Below, piece by piece: positions 1,981-56,956 of a DNA stretch of 64,000 nt. The stretch is taken from assembly GCA_002345745.1 (NCBI GenBank), contig DDWQ01000019.1:83-64082 (forward strand), in the 5' to 3' direction. A program made the translations under genes and the position numbers. Under the pieces are notes generated by a model. The model was not told the origin of the DNA. It was given only the letters and a program-made list of their open reading frames with translations, and made no database searches. The DNA is from Candidatus Moranbacteria bacterium UBA2282. GTDB taxonomy: Bacteria > Patescibacteriota > Minisyncoccia > Moranbacterales > UBA2206. Each line of letters begins with the position of its first letter. Position 1 is the stretch's first letter.

Positions 1981-4560
1981 TTATTCTTTTATAAACGCCG
2001 CGCCTGCAAATTTATCTGTTTTCAAATCAGTTTCTTTTTTGATGGAATTGCCCGTGCGAACTGCATCCTCCGGATAATTCCAAACTGTTTTATAGTTTTC
2101 GGGATACATAATTTCAGAAACAAATACACTACCCACGCTGCCAGATTGTTTTTGCGCTAATAATGAATAACTATCTGCCGCCGTTTTATCAGTGGAATTG
2201 GTAAAAATTTTAAATGGCAGTAAATATTTGTAAGTCACTTGAACTGTTTCCTGCGGACTGACATAAACCCAGTTAGCAAAAACTGTCTTATCTGAATCAT
2301 CATAAATTCGAGTACCGCTTTCTTCATCAATTACTATAGAATCTTCTTCTGTTTGAACTTGTGCATCATGTTTAAATCCCAGCACATTATAATCTAATGG
2401 CGGAGAATTAAATTCTCTAGTCTGTCCAGAAGCTGAAATCAAAGTTGAACCTTTTGGCACATAGACGCGCATATAGTCAGAATTAACTTTGTTCCACCAT
2501 TCCTTATCCAAATTACCTCCATTATGATGACGGGTTATAGTCACCGTGTCAATCACAGAACCATCTGTTTGAATTTCCGCCTTATGGGAAATTTTTTCAT
2601 CTACCACGCCATCCGTCTTATATCCATTAATATTAGTATTAATAACACTCAAATAATCTTTTTGCGTATTCAGAATCTCTCCTGACCAGCCAGCTTGCGA
2701 TAATATTTTTTCAATCTCATAGTTTTTCGAATAAATCAAAATTTGCTTTTCATTCAAACTTTGCACTAAAACGCTCATAGTCTGTGCCATATCAGCAAAA
2801 TTTTTCGTAGTGAAAATCTTATCGAGAATTTTCGGAGCCAAGTCAGCCAAAATCTGTTTTGGCTGGTTCAGTTCTTTGTCATAATCAACTTCAACTTCAT
2901 ACTGAATTTTTTCAATAAAATTATTCGCATCCACAGTCACATCATATTCTGGCATTTCAATCGGTCCAGTCACTTCCAAAAGTTTTTGCATCACATTCGG
3001 AGTCATAGTGATCACGCCATCCACAGTTGGTCCGCCAGTTTTTTCAAAAAACCAACTTGCCTTTTCAGCCGATTTTGGAAAATCTGGAAACCAATTACTA
3101 TCATGCAAGCTCCAAGCCGCCGAAATTTTTTGAATTGGAGTTGGTGGCACAACTTTTGCTCTAAGCTGTCCATCTGGATTGAAAATACCATCAATAAAAA
3201 ACTTGCGAATATTGCCATTAGAAATATCCATTAATCCATAAGTTCCAATAAATCCGCCTGTGGCTCGCATCTCCTGATTATTTTGGAATAAAAATAAATA
3301 TTTTCTCGGACCATTGCCACCCAAAACATCTGTAAAAATTTTACTATTATCTAGAAAACTCGCAATAAAATAGCGAATACTTGGTAATTTACTTTTCAAT
3401 TCTACAAATTGAACTCGTTGCTGCTGGGGAATATCTGAGACGTTAACCTTATCCAAATTGTTTTGTAAATCATCAACTAAAATTAAAATTTCTTTTAAAT
3501 TACTATCCGTGTCCTGAAATATTTTTAAAAATGAGACTGATTCATTATTTTGTTCTAGCGGATTTTTTATCTCATTAGCCAATTGCATAATTTCACCTGC
3601 TAAAACCCCAATTCGAGCGATATCCTTTCCTGATTGAGAAATATAATAACCAGAAGAAATTTTTGATAAATATGGTATGAACTGCGATGTTTCAACTAAA
3701 ATTTTTCCCAGACTATCAATATCAGTGGAAATTTCTCCAAATTTATCATAAGCTTCATTAAATTCAAATTTAGATTTTTCAAAATTCTTACCAACAATAT
3801 CTGCCTGAGCCAGAGCCAAATTAGCATAAGCACTCTTTCCTGTGCCTAAAACAGAATCTTTGATCTTGAGACCTTTATTAAAAAATCCTACACTAAAAAT
3901 AACAACAAAAATAACTATCGCAATACTAGAAAAAGAGAAGGCAAATTGCTTGTAATTAGAAACTACAAATATATCTGCTAATGTAAATCCATTCTGCTTT
4001 TTGTATTCAGCAACTTCTTCAAAAAAATTATCCTGCGTCACTTCACTATCTATGTCATGTTTCTGACTGAACTCAACATTTATATTCTGTACATTTTGCA
4101 CGTGAATCGTATTTTTCCGAACAATTGGCTCAGCTGGTACAATAATTCTGTCTTTTTTTACGATTGGCGTAGTAGCTACACGCACAACTGGCACGCTGTC
4201 AGAACGGAAAGTTTCTCCAAACTGATAAATCATTGTCGCTTGATCACTTTTCCGATATACCTGCGGTCGTGTAATAGCTCGTTTTTGATTATTACTCTTT
4301 ACAATATCATGAAAAAATTTATTTTTATTTTCACAAAGTACAGTAACTTTTCTCTCGGGCTTGCTAACTTTTTCGAATTGTAGAACTTGCCCACTTTTTT
4401 TAATTCTTTCCAAATCTAAATCACCAGCTTCATTAACCGGTTTTACATCAAACATCTGTGAAATTATTTTGTTTCTATTTTTATTTATCATAAATTGTTT
4501 GTGTTTCTTGTGCCATTTTTTTCCAGCTATATTTTTTTGCTTGCTCATATCCTCGCACAA
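1981..4560 (-). CDS. large membrane-anchored extracellular protein, DUF4012-like (assignment tentative)
   Basis: 859 aa, one N-proximal TM (IAIVIFVVIFSVGFF) and a GGFIGTYG motif region. It sits inside the glycosyltransferase cluster. The N-terminus overlaps the upstream GT stop by 80 nt, so the true start is probably a later Met (M24 or M36). Confidence 0.4.
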   Translation of the reverse strand: MCEDMSKQKNIAGKKWHKKHKQFMINKNRNKIISQMFDVKPVNEAGDLDLERIKKSGQVLQFEKVSKPERKVTVLCENKNKFFHDIVKSNNQKRAITRPQVYRKSDQATMIYQFGETFRSDSVPVVRVATTPIVKKDRIIVPAEPIVRKNTIHVQNVQNINVEFSQKHDIDSEVTQDNFFEEVAEYKKQNGFTLADIFVVSNYKQFAFSFSSIAIVIFVVIFSVGFFNKGLKIKDSVLGTGKSAYANLALAQADIVGKNFEKSKFEFNEAYDKFGEISTDIDSLGKILVETSQFIPYLSKISSGYYISQSGKDIARIGVLAGEIMQLANEIKNPLEQNNESVSFLKIFQDTDSNLKEILILVDDLQNNLDKVNVSDIPQQQRVQFVELKSKLPSIRYFIASFLDNSKIFTDVLGGNGPRKYLFLFQNNQEMRATGGFIGTYGLMDISNGNIRKFFIDGIFNPDGQLRAKVVPPTPIQKISAAWSLHDSNWFPDFPKSAEKASWFFEKTGGPTVDGVITMTPNVMQKLLEVTGPIEMPEYDVTVDANNFIEKIQYEVEVDYDKELNQPKQILADLAPKILDKIFTTKNFADMAQTMSVLVQSLNEKQILIYSKNYEIEKILSQAGWSGEILNTQKDYLSVINTNINGYKTDGVVDEKISHKAEIQTDGSVIDTVTITRHHNGGNLDKEWWNKVNSDYMRVYVPKGSTLISASGQTREFNSPPLDYNVLGFKHDAQVQTEEDSIVIDEESGTRIYDDSDKTVFANWVYVSPQETVQVTYKYLLPFKIFTNSTDKTAADSYSLLAQKQSGSVGSVFVSEIMYPENYKTVWNYPEDAVRTGNSIKKETDLKTDKFAGAAFIKE

Positions 4561-13701: not shown

Positions 13702-16386
13702 CTAAAAATGCTTAATGCTCTTTTGTAACTCTTTCTGAATTTTCACTTTCTCTTTATATTCTTCTATCCTGCTTTTTGTCGCTTCAATAATCTCTTCTGG
13801 TGCTCCAGCCACAAAATTCTTATTTTTCAACATCCCCTCATTTTTAACAATCAGGTTTTCCAAATTTTTAACTTCTTTATCTATCGCAATTAACTCTTTT
13901 TCCACATCAATTGATTTGGAAATATTGAGTTGCAAGGTTCGGTTTCTAGTCGCGACTTGAATCATTTTTTCTTTCATACCTTTGCCAATTTCAATGTTAA
14001 CTCGAGCTAATTTCTCAATGATTTCTTTTTCTATTTTTTCGTTTCCATAAGCTTCAATTAAATCAATTGGGTCAATATGATAGCTAGCTCGAATGTTGCG
14101 AACTTTAGCAATCAATTCTTGCAAATCAGCAAAACTATTTTGAACTTTAGCATCAATAAATTTCTTTTCACTTTTTGGCCATTGTGCCATCATGAGCAAC
14201 TTGGACACTGGGTGTCCAAGGACACTCAGTGTCCTCTCATTCATAACTTGATAAATTTCTTCTGTCACGAACGGCGTAAATGGGTGCCACAGTTTTAAAA
14301 TCTTATCTAGAACATAACCCAAAACTTTTGTGTTTTTTTCAAGCTTATTAACTTCAAGGTACCATGACGCAAAACTATCCCATGTAAACTTGCGCAATGC
14401 ATCCTGAGCTAGGGAGATATTTTTATCTTTCAGAAAATCTGTGACTTTTTTATTCACGCCCTCTAACTCAGAAACAATCCACTTGTCAGACAAAGTTTTC
14501 AAATCATTCTTGCTAATTTTTTCCACTAAAACAAAGTCTTTATCTGATTGTTCACAATACCGAAAAATATTCCACAATTTAGTTACGAAATTGCGAAAGC
14601 TTTCTACTTTCTCTTCATACAAGCGTGAATCTTGCCCAGGAGCGATGTCCATCACCAGACTCAAACGCAAGGCATCCGCACCATATTTTTCAATTGTTTC
14701 TAATGGATCAATCCCATTGCCACGCGATTTGGAAAACTTATGACCCTCCTTATCTCGCACTAACCCGGTGAAATATAAATTTTTAAATGGAACTTTGCCA
14801 GTGCGATAAGCACCCATCATCAGCATTCTAGTCGCCCAAAAAGGCAAAATATCCCTGCCCATTACCATCATATCGGTTGGATAAAAATTTTTGAAATCTT
14901 TTCCCTTTGGTAAACCTAATGTCGTATACGGCCATTGACTTGAAGAAAACCAAGTATCAAAAGTGTTTTCATCTTGGATCCAACCCTTGCCTTTCGGCGC
15001 AGTGAGTCCAACATAAATTTCTTGATTTTCATTAGCTTTTGACTTTTGACTTTCGGCTTTCGGCTTCTCTCGATACCATACTGGAAATTGCGGGCCCCAC
15101 CAAATTTGTCGTGAGATACACCAATCATGCAAATTAGAAATCCAATTGATAATAATTTTTTTAAAATTTTCTGGATAGATTTCGACTTTACCTGATTTAA
15201 TCATCTCTAGTGTTTTTTTCTTAAGAGAATATTTTTCCGCATCAACTGACACAAACCATTGATTGGAAATCAGTGGTTCAATGACGGTTTTACATCTTTC
15301 ACAAACAGAAACATTATTTGTGATGGGTTCTTCCTTTTCAAATAAATCTAATTTTTGCAAGTCAGCAATTATTTTTTCTCGCGCTTCTAGAACTCCCATA
15401 CCAGCATATTCTCCGCCATTAATTGTGATTTCTGCTTTCTCGTCAATTACAAAAATCTCTTCTAGTTTGTGATCTTTACCAATTTGCCAATCCAAAGGAT
15501 CGTGTGCTGGTGTAATTTTCACCGCGCCCGTTCCGAAATCCATAGCAATCCGTCGATCAGCAATCACGGGGATTTCCCTGTTCTGCAATGGCAAAATTAG
15601 GTTTTGACCGATAAAACTCAAAAATCGTTTATCTTTTGGATTGACCGCCACGGCCGTGTCGCCCAGCATCGTTTCTGGACGCGTCGTTGCTACCACGACA
15701 AACTCCTTGGAATCTTTAACTGGATATTTGATATAATATAACTTGCCATTTTTTTCTTGATGTTCAACTTCCACGTCGGATAAGGCGGTCGCACAGCGTG
15801 AACACCAATTGATAATCCGATTACCTTTGTACACCAAACCATCTTTATACATTTTAACAAAAGTCTCCAGTGCTATTTTCAGACTATCTGGATCCAGTGT
15901 AAATTTTTCTCGCGACCAATCAGCACTAATGCCAATTTTTTTTTCTTGGGAACGCATATAATTGGAACGACCAATGCAAAAATCATAGCAATCTTTATAG
16001 AATTTTTCTCGTCCAATTTTATCGCGAGTTATGCCTTGTTCTTCTTTTATTTTTCGCTCATACACCACTTGTGTTTGAATTCCGGCGTGATCTTTACCCG
16101 GTAAAAGCAAAACTTTTTTGCCTTGCATACGCTCGAAACGTCCGAAAATGTCCATCACTGTGTAGCCACTGGCATGCCCCAAATGAAGTTCTCCATTAGC
16201 ATTCGGCGGCGGCAAAATATTGCAATATTTTCCTTGCCTACCGGCAGGCAGGTTCGTTGCCTTAATATTATCTGGATTAAAAAATCCACTCTCTTCCCAG
16301 AGCTTATAAATCTCAGCTTCGCGTTCTTTGAAATTATACTGCTTTGAAATTTCTCGCATAACTATTTTAATTATTTTTACCATCAA
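13702..16386 (-). CDS. valS: valine--tRNA ligase
   Basis: 894 aa class I aaRS with HLGH and KFSKS motifs, editing domain and C-terminal coiled coil. Confidence 0.9.
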   Translation of the reverse strand: MMVKIIKIVMREISKQYNFKEREAEIYKLWEESGFFNPDNIKATNLPAGRQGKYCNILPPPNANGELHLGHASGYTVMDIFGRFERMQGKKVLLLPGKDHAGIQTQVVYERKIKEEQGITRDKIGREKFYKDCYDFCIGRSNYMRSQEKKIGISADWSREKFTLDPDSLKIALETFVKMYKDGLVYKGNRIINWCSRCATALSDVEVEHQEKNGKLYYIKYPVKDSKEFVVVATTRPETMLGDTAVAVNPKDKRFLSFIGQNLILPLQNREIPVIADRRIAMDFGTGAVKITPAHDPLDWQIGKDHKLEEIFVIDEKAEITINGGEYAGMGVLEAREKIIADLQKLDLFEKEEPITNNVSVCERCKTVIEPLISNQWFVSVDAEKYSLKKKTLEMIKSGKVEIYPENFKKIIINWISNLHDWCISRQIWWGPQFPVWYREKPKAESQKSKANENQEIYVGLTAPKGKGWIQDENTFDTWFSSSQWPYTTLGLPKGKDFKNFYPTDMMVMGRDILPFWATRMLMMGAYRTGKVPFKNLYFTGLVRDKEGHKFSKSRGNGIDPLETIEKYGADALRLSLVMDIAPGQDSRLYEEKVESFRNFVTKLWNIFRYCEQSDKDFVLVEKISKNDLKTLSDKWIVSELEGVNKKVTDFLKDKNISLAQDALRKFTWDSFASWYLEVNKLEKNTKVLGYVLDKILKLWHPFTPFVTEEIYQVMNERTLSVLGHPVSKLLMMAQWPKSEKKFIDAKVQNSFADLQELIAKVRNIRASYHIDPIDLIEAYGNEKIEKEIIEKLARVNIEIGKGMKEKMIQVATRNRTLQLNISKSIDVEKELIAIDKEVKNLENLIVKNEGMLKNKNFVAGAPEEIIEATKSRIEEYKEKVKIQKELQKSIKHF

Positions 16387-25343: not shown

Positions 25344-25452
25344 ATTTATAAATATTTTTACTCATATATCTTAAATTTTATTTTCCACACATCTTATAAG
25401 AAGTCAAAAGGAGCTTCAAAAGGAGCTAAGCTCCTTTTTCTAGCTCCTTTTT

Positions 25453-26181
25453 CTATTTTAGCAGTTCACCGTCTGTCGCAAAACGGCGGGTCTGGATTAT
25501 TTCGTCAGAAACAATAGCACCGTCTTTCATGCGAATGATGCGCTTGCCATGCTCAGCTGTGAAAGTTTCATGAGTTACTAAAATAATTGTCTTGCCAGCA
25601 TCATTCAAGTCCTGCAAAATTTTCATCACTTGCGTGCCGGACTTGGAATCCAAGTTGCCAGTCGGTTCGTCAGCGAATATAACACTTGGATCGTTGACCA
25701 GTGCACGCGCAATCGCTACGCGCTGCCTCTCACCACCCGAGAGTTGATTAGAAAAATAGTCCTTGCGATGCTCCATACCCACACTGCGCAAAGCTTCAAG
25801 AACTTTTTTAGAGTTGTCATTGGAAAGTTCCTTGTCATAGAGAAGTGGCAATTCCACATTTTCAAAAACCGTGGTGCGTGGCAACAGATTGAAAGTCTGA
25901 AAAACAAATCCCACTTTTTTGTTGCGAATCTCCGCCAATTCATCATCAGAAAAATCTTTCGTATTTTCTCCTTCCAAAAGATATTCTCCGTCACTTAACC
26001 GATCCAAAAATCCCAACATTTGCATTAGAGTTGATTTTCCAGAACCGGACGGCCCCATGATGGAAACAAATTCACCTTCTCCTACAGAGAAAGAGACACC
26101 GCAAACCGCCTGAGTGAAAACTCCCTCATTCTCATAAGTTTTGCACAAATTTCTGACTTCAATCAATGTTGACAAATTCAT
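25453..26181 (-). CDS. ABC transporter ATP-binding protein (MacB/LolD-type)
   Basis: Walker [10 protein letters not shown], signature [15 protein letters not shown], Walker [13 protein letters not shown]. Confidence 0.9.
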
Positions 26182-26210
26182 AAAAATAGAGTATAATATA
26201 AAACTGTGCT

Positions 26211-37805: not shown

Positions 37806-38843
37806 TTATGATTTCAAAGCTTCAATCCCGGGCATAGAATTGCCGACCACATAATCTAGCATAGCGCCACCACCAGTTGAAACAAAGGAAATTGCGTCTA
37901 GGGCATTATTTTTTTCCAAAATTTCAATGGTTTCCCCCCCACCCACCAAAACAAAAGCACCACTAGCAATCACAGCCTCCAGAATTTCATTAGAACTTTT
38001 AGCATATTTTTCATCTTCAAATTTTCCTGTTGGTCCATTCCAGGTGATCATTTTGGCGGTGGCAATAATTGTTTTAAATTTTTCTACAGTCTTTGGTCCA
38101 ATATCTAGGTGCTCACCCACGAAATCAATCGGCAAAATAACCTTGTCGGAAAATTCCAAATTTTCATCCAGTGCTTCATTAGCAATTTTTCCACCAACCA
38201 ACACATAGTCATATTTTTCCTCAAAAAATTTAATCACTGGCAATTTAGTTTCAATCTTGGCACCACCAATAATCGCCACCGCTGGATGAACTGGATGATC
38301 TTTGATAATGGTCATTTCATGAATTTCTTCCAAAAGTCGAAAGCCAGCACAGCTAGGCAAAATTTTCGCCACACCTGTCACGGACGCCTGATTTCTGTGA
38401 CTCACACTAAAAGCATCATTCACAAATATATCAAAATTTTCCGCCAAAAGTTTCGCAAATTCTGAATCATTTGACTCATCGCCATCATGAAAACGCACAT
38501 TTTCCAAAAGCAATGCGCCACCTTGCAAATTGTTTATAGCCGTGACAACTTTTTCACCCACACAATCCGAAACAAATTCCAAATTGGTTGCCAGAATTTC
38601 TTTGGCATCAGAAACAATTTGTTGTAATGAAAATTCTGAACTGGCAACGCCATCTGGTCGTCCAAAATGTGAAATCATCGCCACTTGGCAATTCTTATTT
38701 AATAAATAATCCAATGTTTCTTTGGCGGCTGCAATTTTGAAAGACTCTTTGACTTTGCCGTTCTCTACTGCCACATTAAAATCCACTCTCAGCAATACTT
38801 TTTTACCCGCCAACTCCATATCTTGAATTCTTTTGATATCCAT
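37806..38843 (-). CDS. pgk: phosphoglycerate kinase
   Basis: VLLRVDFNV N-terminal motif and hinge/C-domain glycine motifs. 345 aa, which is short for PGK. Confidence 0.8.
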   Translation of the reverse strand: MDIKRIQDMELAGKKVLLRVDFNVAVENGKVKESFKIAAAKETLDYLLNKNCQVAMISHFGRPDGVASSEFSLQQIVSDAKEILATNLEFVSDCVGEKVVTAINNLQGGALLLENVRFHDGDESNDSEFAKLLAENFDIFVNDAFSVSHRNQASVTGVAKILPSCAGFRLLEEIHEMTIIKDHPVHPAVAIIGGAKIETKLPVIKFFEEKYDYVLVGGKIANEALDENLEFSDKVILPIDFVGEHLDIGPKTVEKFKTIIATAKMITWNGPTGKFEDEKYAKSSNEILEAVIASGAFVLVGGGETIEILEKNNALDAISFVSTGGGAMLDYVVGNSMPGIEALKS

Positions 38844-38894
38844 ATTCTTTAAATTATATTAAAACTTACCTTTCCTATTTTATCATATCTCAGC

Positions 38895-38926
38895 AAAAAT
38901 CGGAATATCCTCCGATAATTTTTTTT
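38895..38926. terminator. hairpin ATCGGA-ATATCC-TCCGAT flanked by an A-run and T-run
   Basis: 6-bp stem, followed by AATTTTTTTT on the plus strand and TTTTTGC on the minus strand. It closes the unexplained non-coding region just upstream of pgk. Confidence 0.5.
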
Positions 38927-38929
38927 GCA

Positions 38930-39430
38930 TACACAGTGCTAATTTTTCTTAACAGAAAAATACAGTTTGTCCATTTTCTTTGACAGCAAAGAAAGTGGAC
39001 GAAAAGAAACTGCCGGCGCCGGCTTGTGCTGTCTAAATTTCTAGCTTACTCGCTAAAATTCTTAGGGCGGTCATAACGGGGTAAGAATTTCTTAACGCTC
39101 ATGCGCTGAAATTTAGAAACGCACTATCGCCAAGGCGCGGAATTTTTTTAGCGTTTAAAAACTTATCACGCACTAGCGGAATACCAAGGTACAAATTGAA
39201 ACTTATGAACGTTAAGAAATTTCCTACTAACAATCTTTTTTAGCATTTTCGGGAATTTTAGTGAATAAGTTGTCCGCCTCGGATCGACGAGTGGTTGTCT
39301 CCACGAGTCGAGACGGGAAAATTTGTCTTGGTATGTAGCCGTGCGGCCTTTTTCTTTTTTGCCACTTTTCTTTTGGGAAAAGAAAAATGGCGTAGTGAGT
39401 TTTTTCTGAAAGAAAAAACTAGCACTGTAA
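38930..39430. ncRNA. unassigned structured non-coding region (candidate large ncRNA; identity unknown)
   Basis: About 500 bp with no credible ORF (only a 103-aa + strand ORF with poor composition). GC-rich patches alternate with AT runs and there are many hairpins (14-bp stem 38969-39000, GCCGGCGCCGGC, AACGCT...AGCGTT). A 9-bp long-range complement joins 38933-38941 to 39420-39428. Confidence 0.3.
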
Positions 39431-39462
39431 ATATAAGAAAACTGAAATTCTATTTTGAAAAA

Positions 39463-40572
39463 TTAAAAATTACCCCTGCCCATTCCCAATATTGCGATAA
39501 TCACACCAATCATAGCTGTCACCATCGTAAAAATCCAAGCACGCATCGTAACTTTAGTTTCTGGCCATCCCAACGCCTCAAAATGATGATGAATAGGTGC
39601 CGCTAAAAAAACTTTTCGCTTAAAATATTTTTTTGAAGTCAATTGAATAATAACTGAACCTGATTCTATGATGTAAATAAACACAATAATAAACAAGGCT
39701 AGCACCGAGTTAGTAAGCATCGCCACCACACCTAGCGTTGTTCCAAGTGCGACTGCCCCCGTATCACCCATAATAAATCTGGCTGGATAGATATTAAACC
39801 ATAAAAACGCTAGGAGTGCTCCAGCAATGGCTGCACAAAATGCTGCCAAATCCATTTTATTATGGAAAAAAGATATCAAGGCAAATGAACTGAAAGCAAT
39901 TGAAAGTATCCCGCCATTCAAACCGTCTAGTCCATCAGTTTCATTGGACGAAATGGCTGCAAAAAGAATAACGAAAATAAACAAAGGCATGTACCACCAG
40001 CCAATTTCGAAATTGCCCATAGCGGGAACATGAATAATATTCCAATTCAATTTAAAGTAGAACCACCAAGCACCCAAAATTGCAATCAAAATTAGCCAAC
40101 CAAATCGCATTAAAAAACGCATTCCGCCACCCTTATTCGTTCCGCAGCCCTTAATGCTCATCCAATCATCAAAAAGTCCTAGAATTCCAGCTGTCACTAA
40201 AGTAAATAATGGCAACCAAGTTTGACTTCGGCTTAAAAAATCCAAACGTGCGATAAAGTTTATATTTGTCCAAACAGCTATAACTGGGAAAAGATAATGA
40301 GAAAGGAAAATCATAATCAAAACCACACCCCAGACAAGCATTCCGCCCATTGTTGGCGTTCCACTTTTATGCTTATGCAATTCACTGACAAAAGTAAGTT
40401 TTTCACCATCAACTGAATTTTTCTTAATCTTGATGCCAATTTTATATTTATATAAAAAATGCGTCATTACTGGTGCCAGAAGAAAAGCCACAACAAAAGC
40501 AACAAACCCCGTTATTAAAACTTTCAAGATATCCACCACGATTGGAATTTGTTGTATTTGTGCAAAACCCAT
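39463..40572 (-). CDS. mraY: phospho-N-acetylmuramoyl-pentapeptide transferase
   Basis: 369 aa polytopic membrane protein with conserved MraY/WecA family loops (DD...DG, HHH region). Confidence 0.8.
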   Translation of the reverse strand: MGFAQIQQIPIVVDILKVLITGFVAFVVAFLLAPVMTHFLYKYKIGIKIKKNSVDGEKLTFVSELHKHKSGTPTMGGMLVWGVVLIMIFLSHYLFPVIAVWTNINFIARLDFLSRSQTWLPLFTLVTAGILGLFDDWMSIKGCGTNKGGGMRFLMRFGWLILIAILGAWWFYFKLNWNIIHVPAMGNFEIGWWYMPLFIFVILFAAISSNETDGLDGLNGGILSIAFSSFALISFFHNKMDLAAFCAAIAGALLAFLWFNIYPARFIMGDTGAVALGTTLGVVAMLTNSVLALFIIVFIYIIESGSVIIQLTSKKYFKRKVFLAAPIHHHFEALGWPETKVTMRAWIFTMVTAMIGVIIAILGMGRGNF

Positions 40573-56345: not shown

Positions 56346-56491
56346 TTTTTTATTTTAACTATTTATATTAATATTCTAGCATATAAAGTTTTAGCTTACA
56401 ACTACTCCTCTGTCAATTTTTTTTGCCAAGTCGTATATATAATCCCAAAAAACACCTGTTTACAGCGGTTTCTGTGATATAAACAAAAAAA

Positions 56492-56794
56492 CTAAAAATC
56501 AAATAAATCACCTAGCAATCCTTCCTTTTTTCGTTTTTTGCCATAACCATATCCCTGATTAGAATCGTGATCATCGTGATGATGATCATCATTATAGCTT
56601 CGCTGGTCATTCATTGGCATTCTCTGATTTCTTTCTTGAACAGGAGCAGCGCTACTGGCGGTTGATTTCTCAATTATCTTGTCTAGCTCTCCTCGGTCAA
56701 GCCATACGCCACGACATTGAGGGCAATAATCAATTTCCACTCCTTGACGCTCAGTCATTTGTAAATCCTCATTGTCACATATTGGACATTTCAT
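56492..56794 (-). CDS. zinc-ribbon (zf-TFIIB-like) domain protein
   Basis: MKCPICDN...YCPQCRGVWLDRGELDKI, 100 aa. Confidence 0.6.
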   Translation of the reverse strand: MKCPICDNEDLQMTERQGVEIDYCPQCRGVWLDRGELDKIIEKSTASSAAPVQERNQRMPMNDQRSYNDDHHHDDHDSNQGYGYGKKRKKEGLLGDLFDF

Positions 56795-56956
56795 ATATTT
56801 TTATCTTAAATAATTAACAACTTACCCTTTCATTCTACATCAACCTTTAATTTTTAGCAAAAAAACGCTATCAAAGAAACTACCCCTGTAATACAATCGC
56901 ATCTTTAATAATTTTTACACTATATCATTGCAAATAACTTCTTTCCCAATAATTTA

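Follow-up and report, generated by a model that had tools for sequence, protein, structure and literature searches.

The REP/BIME sequences and REPIN doublets of enterobacteria are extragenic, dispersed and non-coding repeats that frequently occupy gene 3' ends in inverted pairs; in transcripts, they form hairpins that can terminate transcription or stabilise the mRNA. REPs, about 35 nt long and with a GTAG-type head, number in the hundreds and are linked to a RAYT transposase. The Correia elements (CREE) of Neisseria, 100-155 bp in length, are non-coding, intergenic and co-transcribed; characteristic are terminal inverted repeats together with a TA duplication and an IHF site, and both full and internally deleted forms exist. 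Correia elements and bacterial MITEs can carry promoter or terminator activity. The BOX elements of Streptococcus pneumoniae, finally, consist of modular intergenic hairpin boxes in varying combinations, with stable predicted RNA structures and more than 100 copies per genome. The genomes of CPR bacteria (Patescibacteria) are tiny and tightly packed, and their non-coding elements are, to our knowledge, almost entirely unstudied.

In the stretch of 64,000 nt analysed here (the window), an earlier note had pointed to an unexplained, highly structured region of about 600 bp without ORFs between pgk and mraY. We can state with high confidence what this region is: an insertion made up of two units of a dispersed family with a covarying fold, and neither a tmRNA nor a member of any Rfam family. 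The reading as a whole, in which two convergent, diverged units of a mobile intergenic repeat have been inserted and are co-transcribed as a terminator, goes further, and we consider it somewhat probable.

Two convergent units in the spacer between mraY and pgk

The interval 38844-39462 (619 nt) separates two ORFs of the minus strand, the upstream gene mraY (39463-40572) and the downstream gene pgk (37806-38843), for which the Pfam matches PF00953 and PF00162, respectively, are recorded on an identical contig. Within the gap there are short ORFs of at most 55 aa that are not conserved between copies of the element (on the minus strand, these include ORFs of 55 and 44 aa), and one ORF of 103 aa extends antisense into mraY. 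A Pfam search with all gap ORFs of at least 20 aa gave no credible match: the only one, with the 103-aa ORF, reached 15.4 bits at a cut-off of 27. The claim that no other ORF-free interval except rnpB is larger is roughly correct; a gap of similar size (56346-56956) contains an ORF of 100 aa. Folding of the whole region gave z = -7.3 for the plus and z = -15.8 for the minus strand (20 shuffles each). The ORF list and the shuffle-tested folding bear out a highly structured gap with no credible ORF.

The gap is not one RNA of 600 nt. Iterated nhmmer searches and the covariance model R1 identified two full units on opposite strands that converge and nearly abut. The region aligns in patches to its own reverse complement, and it resembles one giant hairpin because it consists of two diverged, convergent copies of a unit of about 230 nt. 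The extreme fold score of the whole region has the same origin, as the inverted copies turn it into a long imperfect palindrome. When folded alone, unit A has z = -5.1 and unit B z = -5.7, and in both cases none of 200 shuffles folds as well. The suggestion of another large ncRNA therefore holds in part: the region does belong to a conserved, structured and covarying family outside Rfam, but it contains two copies of a dispersed repeat of about 230 nt rather than a single RNA gene of about 600 nt.

In each unit, a 5' box (ACAGYGCTA) is followed by the A/U-rich hairpins P1 and P2, an A-rich linker, a GC box and an irregular hairpin of about 150 nt (P3'-P3-P4-P5) with a GC-rich base and then a U-run. 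Unit A, the conserved copy, occupies 39152-39436 on the minus strand (R1: 241.6 bits, E ~1e-54; nhmmer: 39428-39163) and starts 35 nt past the stop codon of mraY, in the same direction as this gene. On the minus strand, it comprises the 5' box ACAGTGCTAG (39428-39419), P1 (39420-39398), P2 (39391-39361), the A-rich linker with the GC box (39360-39338), P3 (39334-39320 / 39197-39181), and a degenerate 3' hairpin with a T-run (39181-39157). Unit B, the diverged copy, lies on the plus strand at 38925-39154 (R1: 172.8 bits, E ~1e-38; nhmmer: 38933-39147). Its parts, all on the plus strand, are the 5' box ACAGTGCTAA (38933-38942), the hairpins P1 (38942-38961) and P2 (38969-39000), a GC palindrome (39012-39023), the long hairpin with P3 (39026-39041 / 39108-39124) and P5 (39055-39064 / 39082-39090), and a 3' GC stem with a T-run (39128-39149).

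Several of these parts had been noticed before: the 14-bp stem is present in P2 of unit B (38969-38982 / 38987-39000), the palindrome GCCGGCGCCGGC is the GC palindrome of the same unit, and the 9-nt long-range complement of ACAGTGCTA (38933-38941) and TAGCACTGT (39420-39428) forms the two ends of the A/B pair. These ends are inverted repeats that match at 9/9 positions at the tips, and their arms of 41 nt show 76% complementarity. The AACGCTC...AGCGTTT sequence is also found, but its pairing plays no part in the family-wide structure.

Next to the units, the hairpin ATCGGAATATCCTCCGAT (38899-38916) is located between an A-run and a T-run (38892-38926). In a terminator scan, which scores both strands, it looks like a terminator on either of them, in agreement with the bidirectional terminator described earlier. 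This hairpin lies outside the repeat family and is common to the window and to the L002/L116 genome. In the contigs L109 and L108, the scan detects a GC stem and a T-run at the sense 3' end of the units themselves; the local 3' hairpins of the window's own units are degenerate, and only the non-family hairpin is flagged there. Direct reading of the minus strand upstream of pgk also revealed an extended -10-like box, TGATAAAAT (38877-38885), which is kept as TGATAAAAT in L002/L116.

A dispersed family with a covarying fold

On a plain MAFFT alignment of 13 units, RNAalifold recovered the long-range helix P3, and 11 pairs are kept through double changes. When 17 units were aligned to R1, 87.9% of the cells were paired and 39 of the 66 pairs had changes on both sides; none of 500 shuffles matched these values. 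In a control in which the partners were slid by 1-3 columns, pairing was 36-57%, with 4-13 double-change pairs. Eight helices are backed by compensatory changes in this alignment, which was fitted to R1 and in which the variation comes mainly from three lineages (A, B and C). G-U pairs exceed A-C mismatches only slightly (40 versus 29), and the minimum free energies of the sense and antisense strands are similar; these measures favour neither strand and fit folded RNA as well as folded single-stranded DNA. The conservation and covariation in related genomes that the earlier note had proposed to look for are found.

The most constrained part is a core of 47 nt, CGCCATTTTTCTTTTCCCAAAAGAAAAGTGGCAAAAAAGAAAAAGGC (39346-39392, minus strand), which according to the column conservation is invariant in 10 distinct A-type copies. 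The flanking and housekeeping genes of the genomes that carry these copies share only about 72-80% DNA identity. The core hints at a protein or RNA partner. Read in antisense, it contains TTGCCA-N18-AAAAAT, an outward-facing match to a promoter.

A metagenome scan with the 20-mer AGCCGTGCGGCCTTTTTCTT, which is common to the window and L002, returned 57 loci, among them about 22 contigs with true homologues. The remaining loci (L061, L064, L065, L067 and about 30 more) carry an unrelated, well-conserved coding gene of organisms with a higher GC content and share the 20-mer by chance. The units are found in at least nine gene contexts, next to mraY, recR, trpS, PGM/PMM, rplU, DHH, nfo-like, uvrD, ABC ATPase and infB genes. 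In most contexts, the unit starts 2-60 nt past the stop codon and in the direction of the gene, and solo units occur in both orientations relative to the neighbouring genes. Long A+B pairs are present in the window, L108, L069 and L105, and solo A units in L085/L094/L109, L108, L066, L106 and L112; L108 and L084 have two element sites per contig. In addition, there is a short form of about 290-310 bp in which the 5' parts of A and B are joined and both ends are kept. It occurs with one identical internal junction at three loci at least, the recR, the trpS and the L088 locus.

The A copies cluster by genome and not by locus: identity reaches 98% between the copies at two loci of one sample and 93% between unit A of the window and the copy in L112, but only 76% between unit A of the window and that of L105, which occupies the same locus in another genome. 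An empty site was also detected: where L066 has a solo unit, the window has a spacer of 29 nt (26182-26210). The genes on its two sides are an efflux-adaptor-like one and one for an ABC ATPase; in the orthologous spacer of L066, the solo unit upstream of the ABC ATPase gene is accompanied by about 70 nt of promoter-like A/T-rich DNA. Among 117 loci, the end pattern was present only in copies of the family, and neither a transposase nor a parent element with such ends was seen. Plasmid, phage and viral collections contained no match to the family, and six viral matches to a 17-mer are due to chance. The literature that we searched held nothing relevant to it. We conclude that the unit belongs to a previously undescribed family of dispersed repeats in a narrow group of the Moraniibacteriota (CPR).

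The family has no counterpart among known RNAs. In the 64-kb window, ARAGORN identified neither a tmRNA nor a tag peptide, tRNA-Trp being its only find, and RNase P and tRNA-Trp were the only Rfam families that reached their gathering thresholds; in the gap itself, no family did so. A cmscan of the region at E<=10 listed 24 matches, none of them to tmRNA or another large-ncRNA family; they are fragments of 14-27 bits, far below the gathering scores. The best of these sub-threshold families, ARRPOF, wcaG, RsaF and RAGATH-19, scored 24-27 bits as compared to gathering scores of 42-127 bits. They have A/U-rich hairpins in common with the region and cover only fragments of it, and we treat them as chance matches. 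With the homologous loci L084, L085, L108, L109 and L111, nothing reached gathering.

Some units carry additional hairpins. At the P3/P4 junction of unit A in the window, there is a GC-rich palindromic hairpin insert (39273-39318) that is absent from all other copies and is present only in the window and in the identical contig L052. GC-rich mini-hairpins in the A/T-rich units, such as TCCGCCGCGGCGGA and CCTGCCTGCCGGCAGGCAGG, are seen at this position, in L108 (3256-3270) and in L069 (~14660-14685), and the short forms in L063 and L111 carry them as well. They are inserted only at loops or junctions and may represent a second kind of small mobile palindrome. In L111 (~2865-2925), an extra hairpin CCAAAAGAAAA...TTTTCTTTTGG, whose loop contains the box ACAGAGTG, adjoins a short-form copy, and hairpins of the type AAAAGAAAA/TTTTCTTTT seem to recur as a building block in these genomes.

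The Logan assemblies of SRR1313259 and SRR1313261 break inside the element (L053 1-139, L054 1-139 and L119 1827-1913): L053 and L054 start at the 3' arm of the P2 hairpin of unit B, and L119 stops 87 nt beyond the end of mraY. As far as L053 and L054 extend into the spacer, they do not differ from the window. We have set aside the idea that these contig breaks indicate many copies, as they fall in palindromic hairpins of otherwise identical sequence.

Insertion at the mraY-pgk locus and its possible explanations

A genome scan with Pgk yielded 51 loci, nearly all from MAGs of Moraniibacteriota or Parcubacteria, and in 34 of them pgk is immediately preceded by mraY. The spacer between the two genes measures 17-33 nt in the nearest relatives (L047, L001 and L003) as compared to 619 nt in the window, and the ~600 bp are therefore an insertion. 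MraY/Pgk identity places the window with L047 and the L105/L116 (= L002) genome with L001 and L003; among these five, only the window and L105/L116 have the element. This distribution requires either two or more gains or two or more losses. The window and the 50 other Moraniibacteriota pgk loci contain no further copies except in L002. Matches of the covariance model with 15-25 bits were judged spurious, and the one at 25413-25531 is an ordinary terminator.

The insertion is bracketed by a direct repeat of 13 nt (repeat family D6) in which 12 of 13 positions match at a spacing of 604 nt. One copy (38858-38870) reads GGTAAGTTTTAAT on the minus strand and the other (39462-39474) GGTAATTTTTAAT, the latter being the last codons and the stop codon of mraY. 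The 604-bp segment flanked by the two copies includes 49 and 20 nt of DNA that do not belong to the family. Over a longer stretch, the pgk-side flank weakly resembles the 3' end of mraY; 17 of 500 shuffles score as high. A clean target-site duplication directly at the ends of the units was not found here, and the other copies inspected showed no clear repeat.

The mraY-pgk spacer is a hot spot for insertions. L020 has an unrelated palindrome of 203 nt (3798-4000), and L007 (3226-4000) and L029 (2584-4000) have whole extra ORFs. A different element with the inverted ends GTTAACGCATTAACGAGTTAACGAATT / AACTCGTTAATCCGTTAACTCGTTAA occupies the spacer in other Moraniibacteriota (L040 3482-4000 and L031 3802-4000); in L040 there is a small ORF between the ends, and the element in L031 has no ORF and thus looks like a MITE-like derivative. 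The long spacers of other relatives contain unrelated inserts and not this repeat family. Just downstream of pgk, a gene encoding a RhuM/Fic-domain protein (36179-37165, between the NUDIX gene and enolase) looks accessory amid a stretch of housekeeping genes.

How did the element come to this place? A purely DNA-level transposon, either a MITE/foldback or a palindrome-associated element of the IS200/IS605 type, could account for many of the observations: a transposase encoded elsewhere would recognise the hairpins in single-stranded DNA, and any effects on RNA would be incidental. This fits with the inverted repeats at the ends of the pair (9/9 at the tips, 76% over 41 nt), with deletion derivatives that have spread in their own right with both ends retained, with the filled and empty sites and the grouping of the copies by genome, and also with a fold that is equally good on both strands and with the lack of a conserved promoter. 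However, no transposase or autonomous relative was seen among the 117 loci and there is no clear target-site duplication. Moreover, the internal helices P3-P5, which are distant from the ends, are kept by compensatory changes, and we know of no MITEs that normally show such conservation. Finally, the U-runs after GC stems and the position just past stop codons point to a role at the RNA level. An element that acts only as DNA is thus rather unlikely.

Two explanations start from the RNA. The units might be genes for trans-acting sibling small RNAs of about 230 nt that are transcribed from the 5' box to their own terminator, and the core would then serve as the binding surface for a conserved protein or a target RNA. 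The invariance of the core in 10 A copies in spite of ~72-80% DNA identity of the housekeeping genes and the covarying multi-helix fold would be expected from such RNAs; the consensus units end in a terminator-like hairpin with a U-run, the homology begins at a fixed box, and some copies have -10-like hexamers just upstream of it. Yet no conserved promoter was found upstream of the units, and their flanks vary from copy to copy. Some copies start only 2-8 nt past the upstream stop codon or have lost the 5' box and P1, and these have no room for the promoter of a small RNA gene. Moreover, truncated, deleted or degenerate copies such as those of the B type are common, and sister genomes do without the element, which makes small RNA genes unlikely. 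It is tempting to speculate that the units are instead copies of a transcript-bounded structured RNA, since the homology runs from a fixed start box to the U-run of a terminator and no promoter is conserved. Such a SINE-like or hairpin-guided element, in bacteria with very small genomes, would move via an RNA or a single-stranded DNA hairpin intermediate, its core would be a recognition site for a protein, and the copies would be portable, invertible terminator/promoter insulators. As one claim with all its parts, this is quite improbable.

The A/B pair might also be an invertible switch: by flipping, it would change which of the outward promoter-like cores (TTGCCA-N18-AAAAAT) faces pgk. Indeed, the window has mraY > A > < B, pgk, the arrangement in L105 and L002/L116 is mraY > B > < A, pgk, and the hairpin and the TGATAAAAT box on the pgk side keep their orientation in spite of the opposite pairs. 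Directly observed are unit B next to mraY in L105 and unit A next to pgk in L002/L116; L105 and L116 were joined on the basis of an overlap of 87 nt inside a repeat. However, the two orientations were found only between species and not within one population, and L052, an independent contig, matches the window exactly and has the pair in the same orientation. None of the genes near the pair (encoding ScpB, Peptidase_S11, MraY, PGK, NUDIX, RhuM/Fic and enolase) is a recombinase or invertase gene, the terminator-like hairpin at 38899-38916 stands between the pair and pgk, and the solo units and the many other loci do not fit. A switch is therefore very unlikely.

A decayed protein-coding gene, for which the minus-strand ORFs of 55 and 44 aa could speak, is barely conceivable: the ORFs that lie wholly inside the gap have no Pfam match and that of the 103-aa antisense ORF is below the cut-off, no protein homology was detected, the small ORFs change frame or lose start or stop codons between aligned copies, and the conservation tracks base pairs in helices rather than codons. 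An ORF of 12-20 aa that is formed by the P4 helix (CTTATG...CATAAG) is non-coding, as its start or stop codon is gone in several copies.

A divergent or permuted tmRNA, which had been considered because 39301-39350 loosely resembles the 5' region of tmRNA, or another known large ncRNA can be discarded, since ARAGORN and Rfam detect none in this region or, in the case of Rfam, in the homologous loci, the resembling patch overlaps the lineage-specific insert at 39273-39318, and the element exists in several copies of which the nearest relatives have none at this locus. What the element and tmRNA (RF00023, RF01849-RF01851) have in common is the size class and this short, loose resemblance in sequence; the tRNA-like domain and the tag reading frame are lacking.

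Proposed role and relation to known elements

The best reading of the element remains that of a REP/Correia-like mobile intergenic repeat that serves as a terminator and 3'-end structure. It would spread as non-autonomous mobile DNA, with the terminal ~100 nt needed in cis, and would land in short spacers at gene 3' ends. There, it would be co-transcribed from the upstream gene, in this case mraY, and the folded units would stop transcription and cap the 3' end of the mRNA. Since an A-run precedes the long hairpin of the unit and a U-run follows it, termination may be possible from either direction. The pgk gene would be uncoupled from mraY and read from the promoter-like box TGATAAAAT, which would provide it with a promoter of its own after the insertion. 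Judged from its features, the element is probably a portable transcription stop.

The mobility of the repeat is in agreement with the filled and empty sites, the presence at several loci, the deletion forms at no fewer than three of them and the grouping of the copies by genome. Against a mobile repeat speak the lack of a clean target-site duplication and of a transposase among the 117 loci. The role as a terminator is suggested by the GC stem and T-run at the sense 3' ends of units in L109 and L108 and by the usual position 2-60 nt past a stop codon in the direction of the gene; it has to be weighed against the 47-nt core, whose invariant sequence implies more constraint than a simple terminator needs, against the degenerate 3' hairpins of the window copies, and against the solo units in both orientations. 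We therefore propose the mechanism that combines terminator and mobile repeat tentatively, as a serious candidate that falls a little short of being probable.

The family would be a new case of a non-coding element in CPR bacteria, with structure, covariation and no Rfam entry. It splits tight gene pairs such as mraY-pgk and therefore probably rewires transcription units. Moreover, its palindromes fragment CPR assemblies, which bears on the quality of metagenome-assembled genomes. The alignment and the model R1 can be used to search metatranscriptomes.

Among the systems described so far, the REP/BIME sequences share with the element the extragenic, dispersed and non-coding nature and the arrangement as inverted pairs at gene 3' ends. 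In contrast to their short palindromes (~20-40 nt) with a head, the unit found here has about 230 nt and several helices, eight of which covary, a 47-nt invariant core, and a low copy density (one pair in 64 kb), and no RAYT was seen. With Correia elements and MITEs, it shares terminal inverted repeats, the non-coding, intergenic nature and the occurrence of full and internally deleted forms. Like MITEs, it is present at multiple unrelated loci and has internal deletions that keep the ends. In contrast to Correia elements, a clear duplication is lacking, the role of inverted "ends" is taken by whole units of about 230 nt that are also found alone, and the internal helices are kept by compensatory change. 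The BOX elements are likewise modular and intergenic, but they have different modules and no sequence relationship to the family. By analogy, the element thus appears to resemble REP/BIME, Correia and BOX elements in kind, and it seems to differ from them in the size of its unit, its fold, its core and its copy density.
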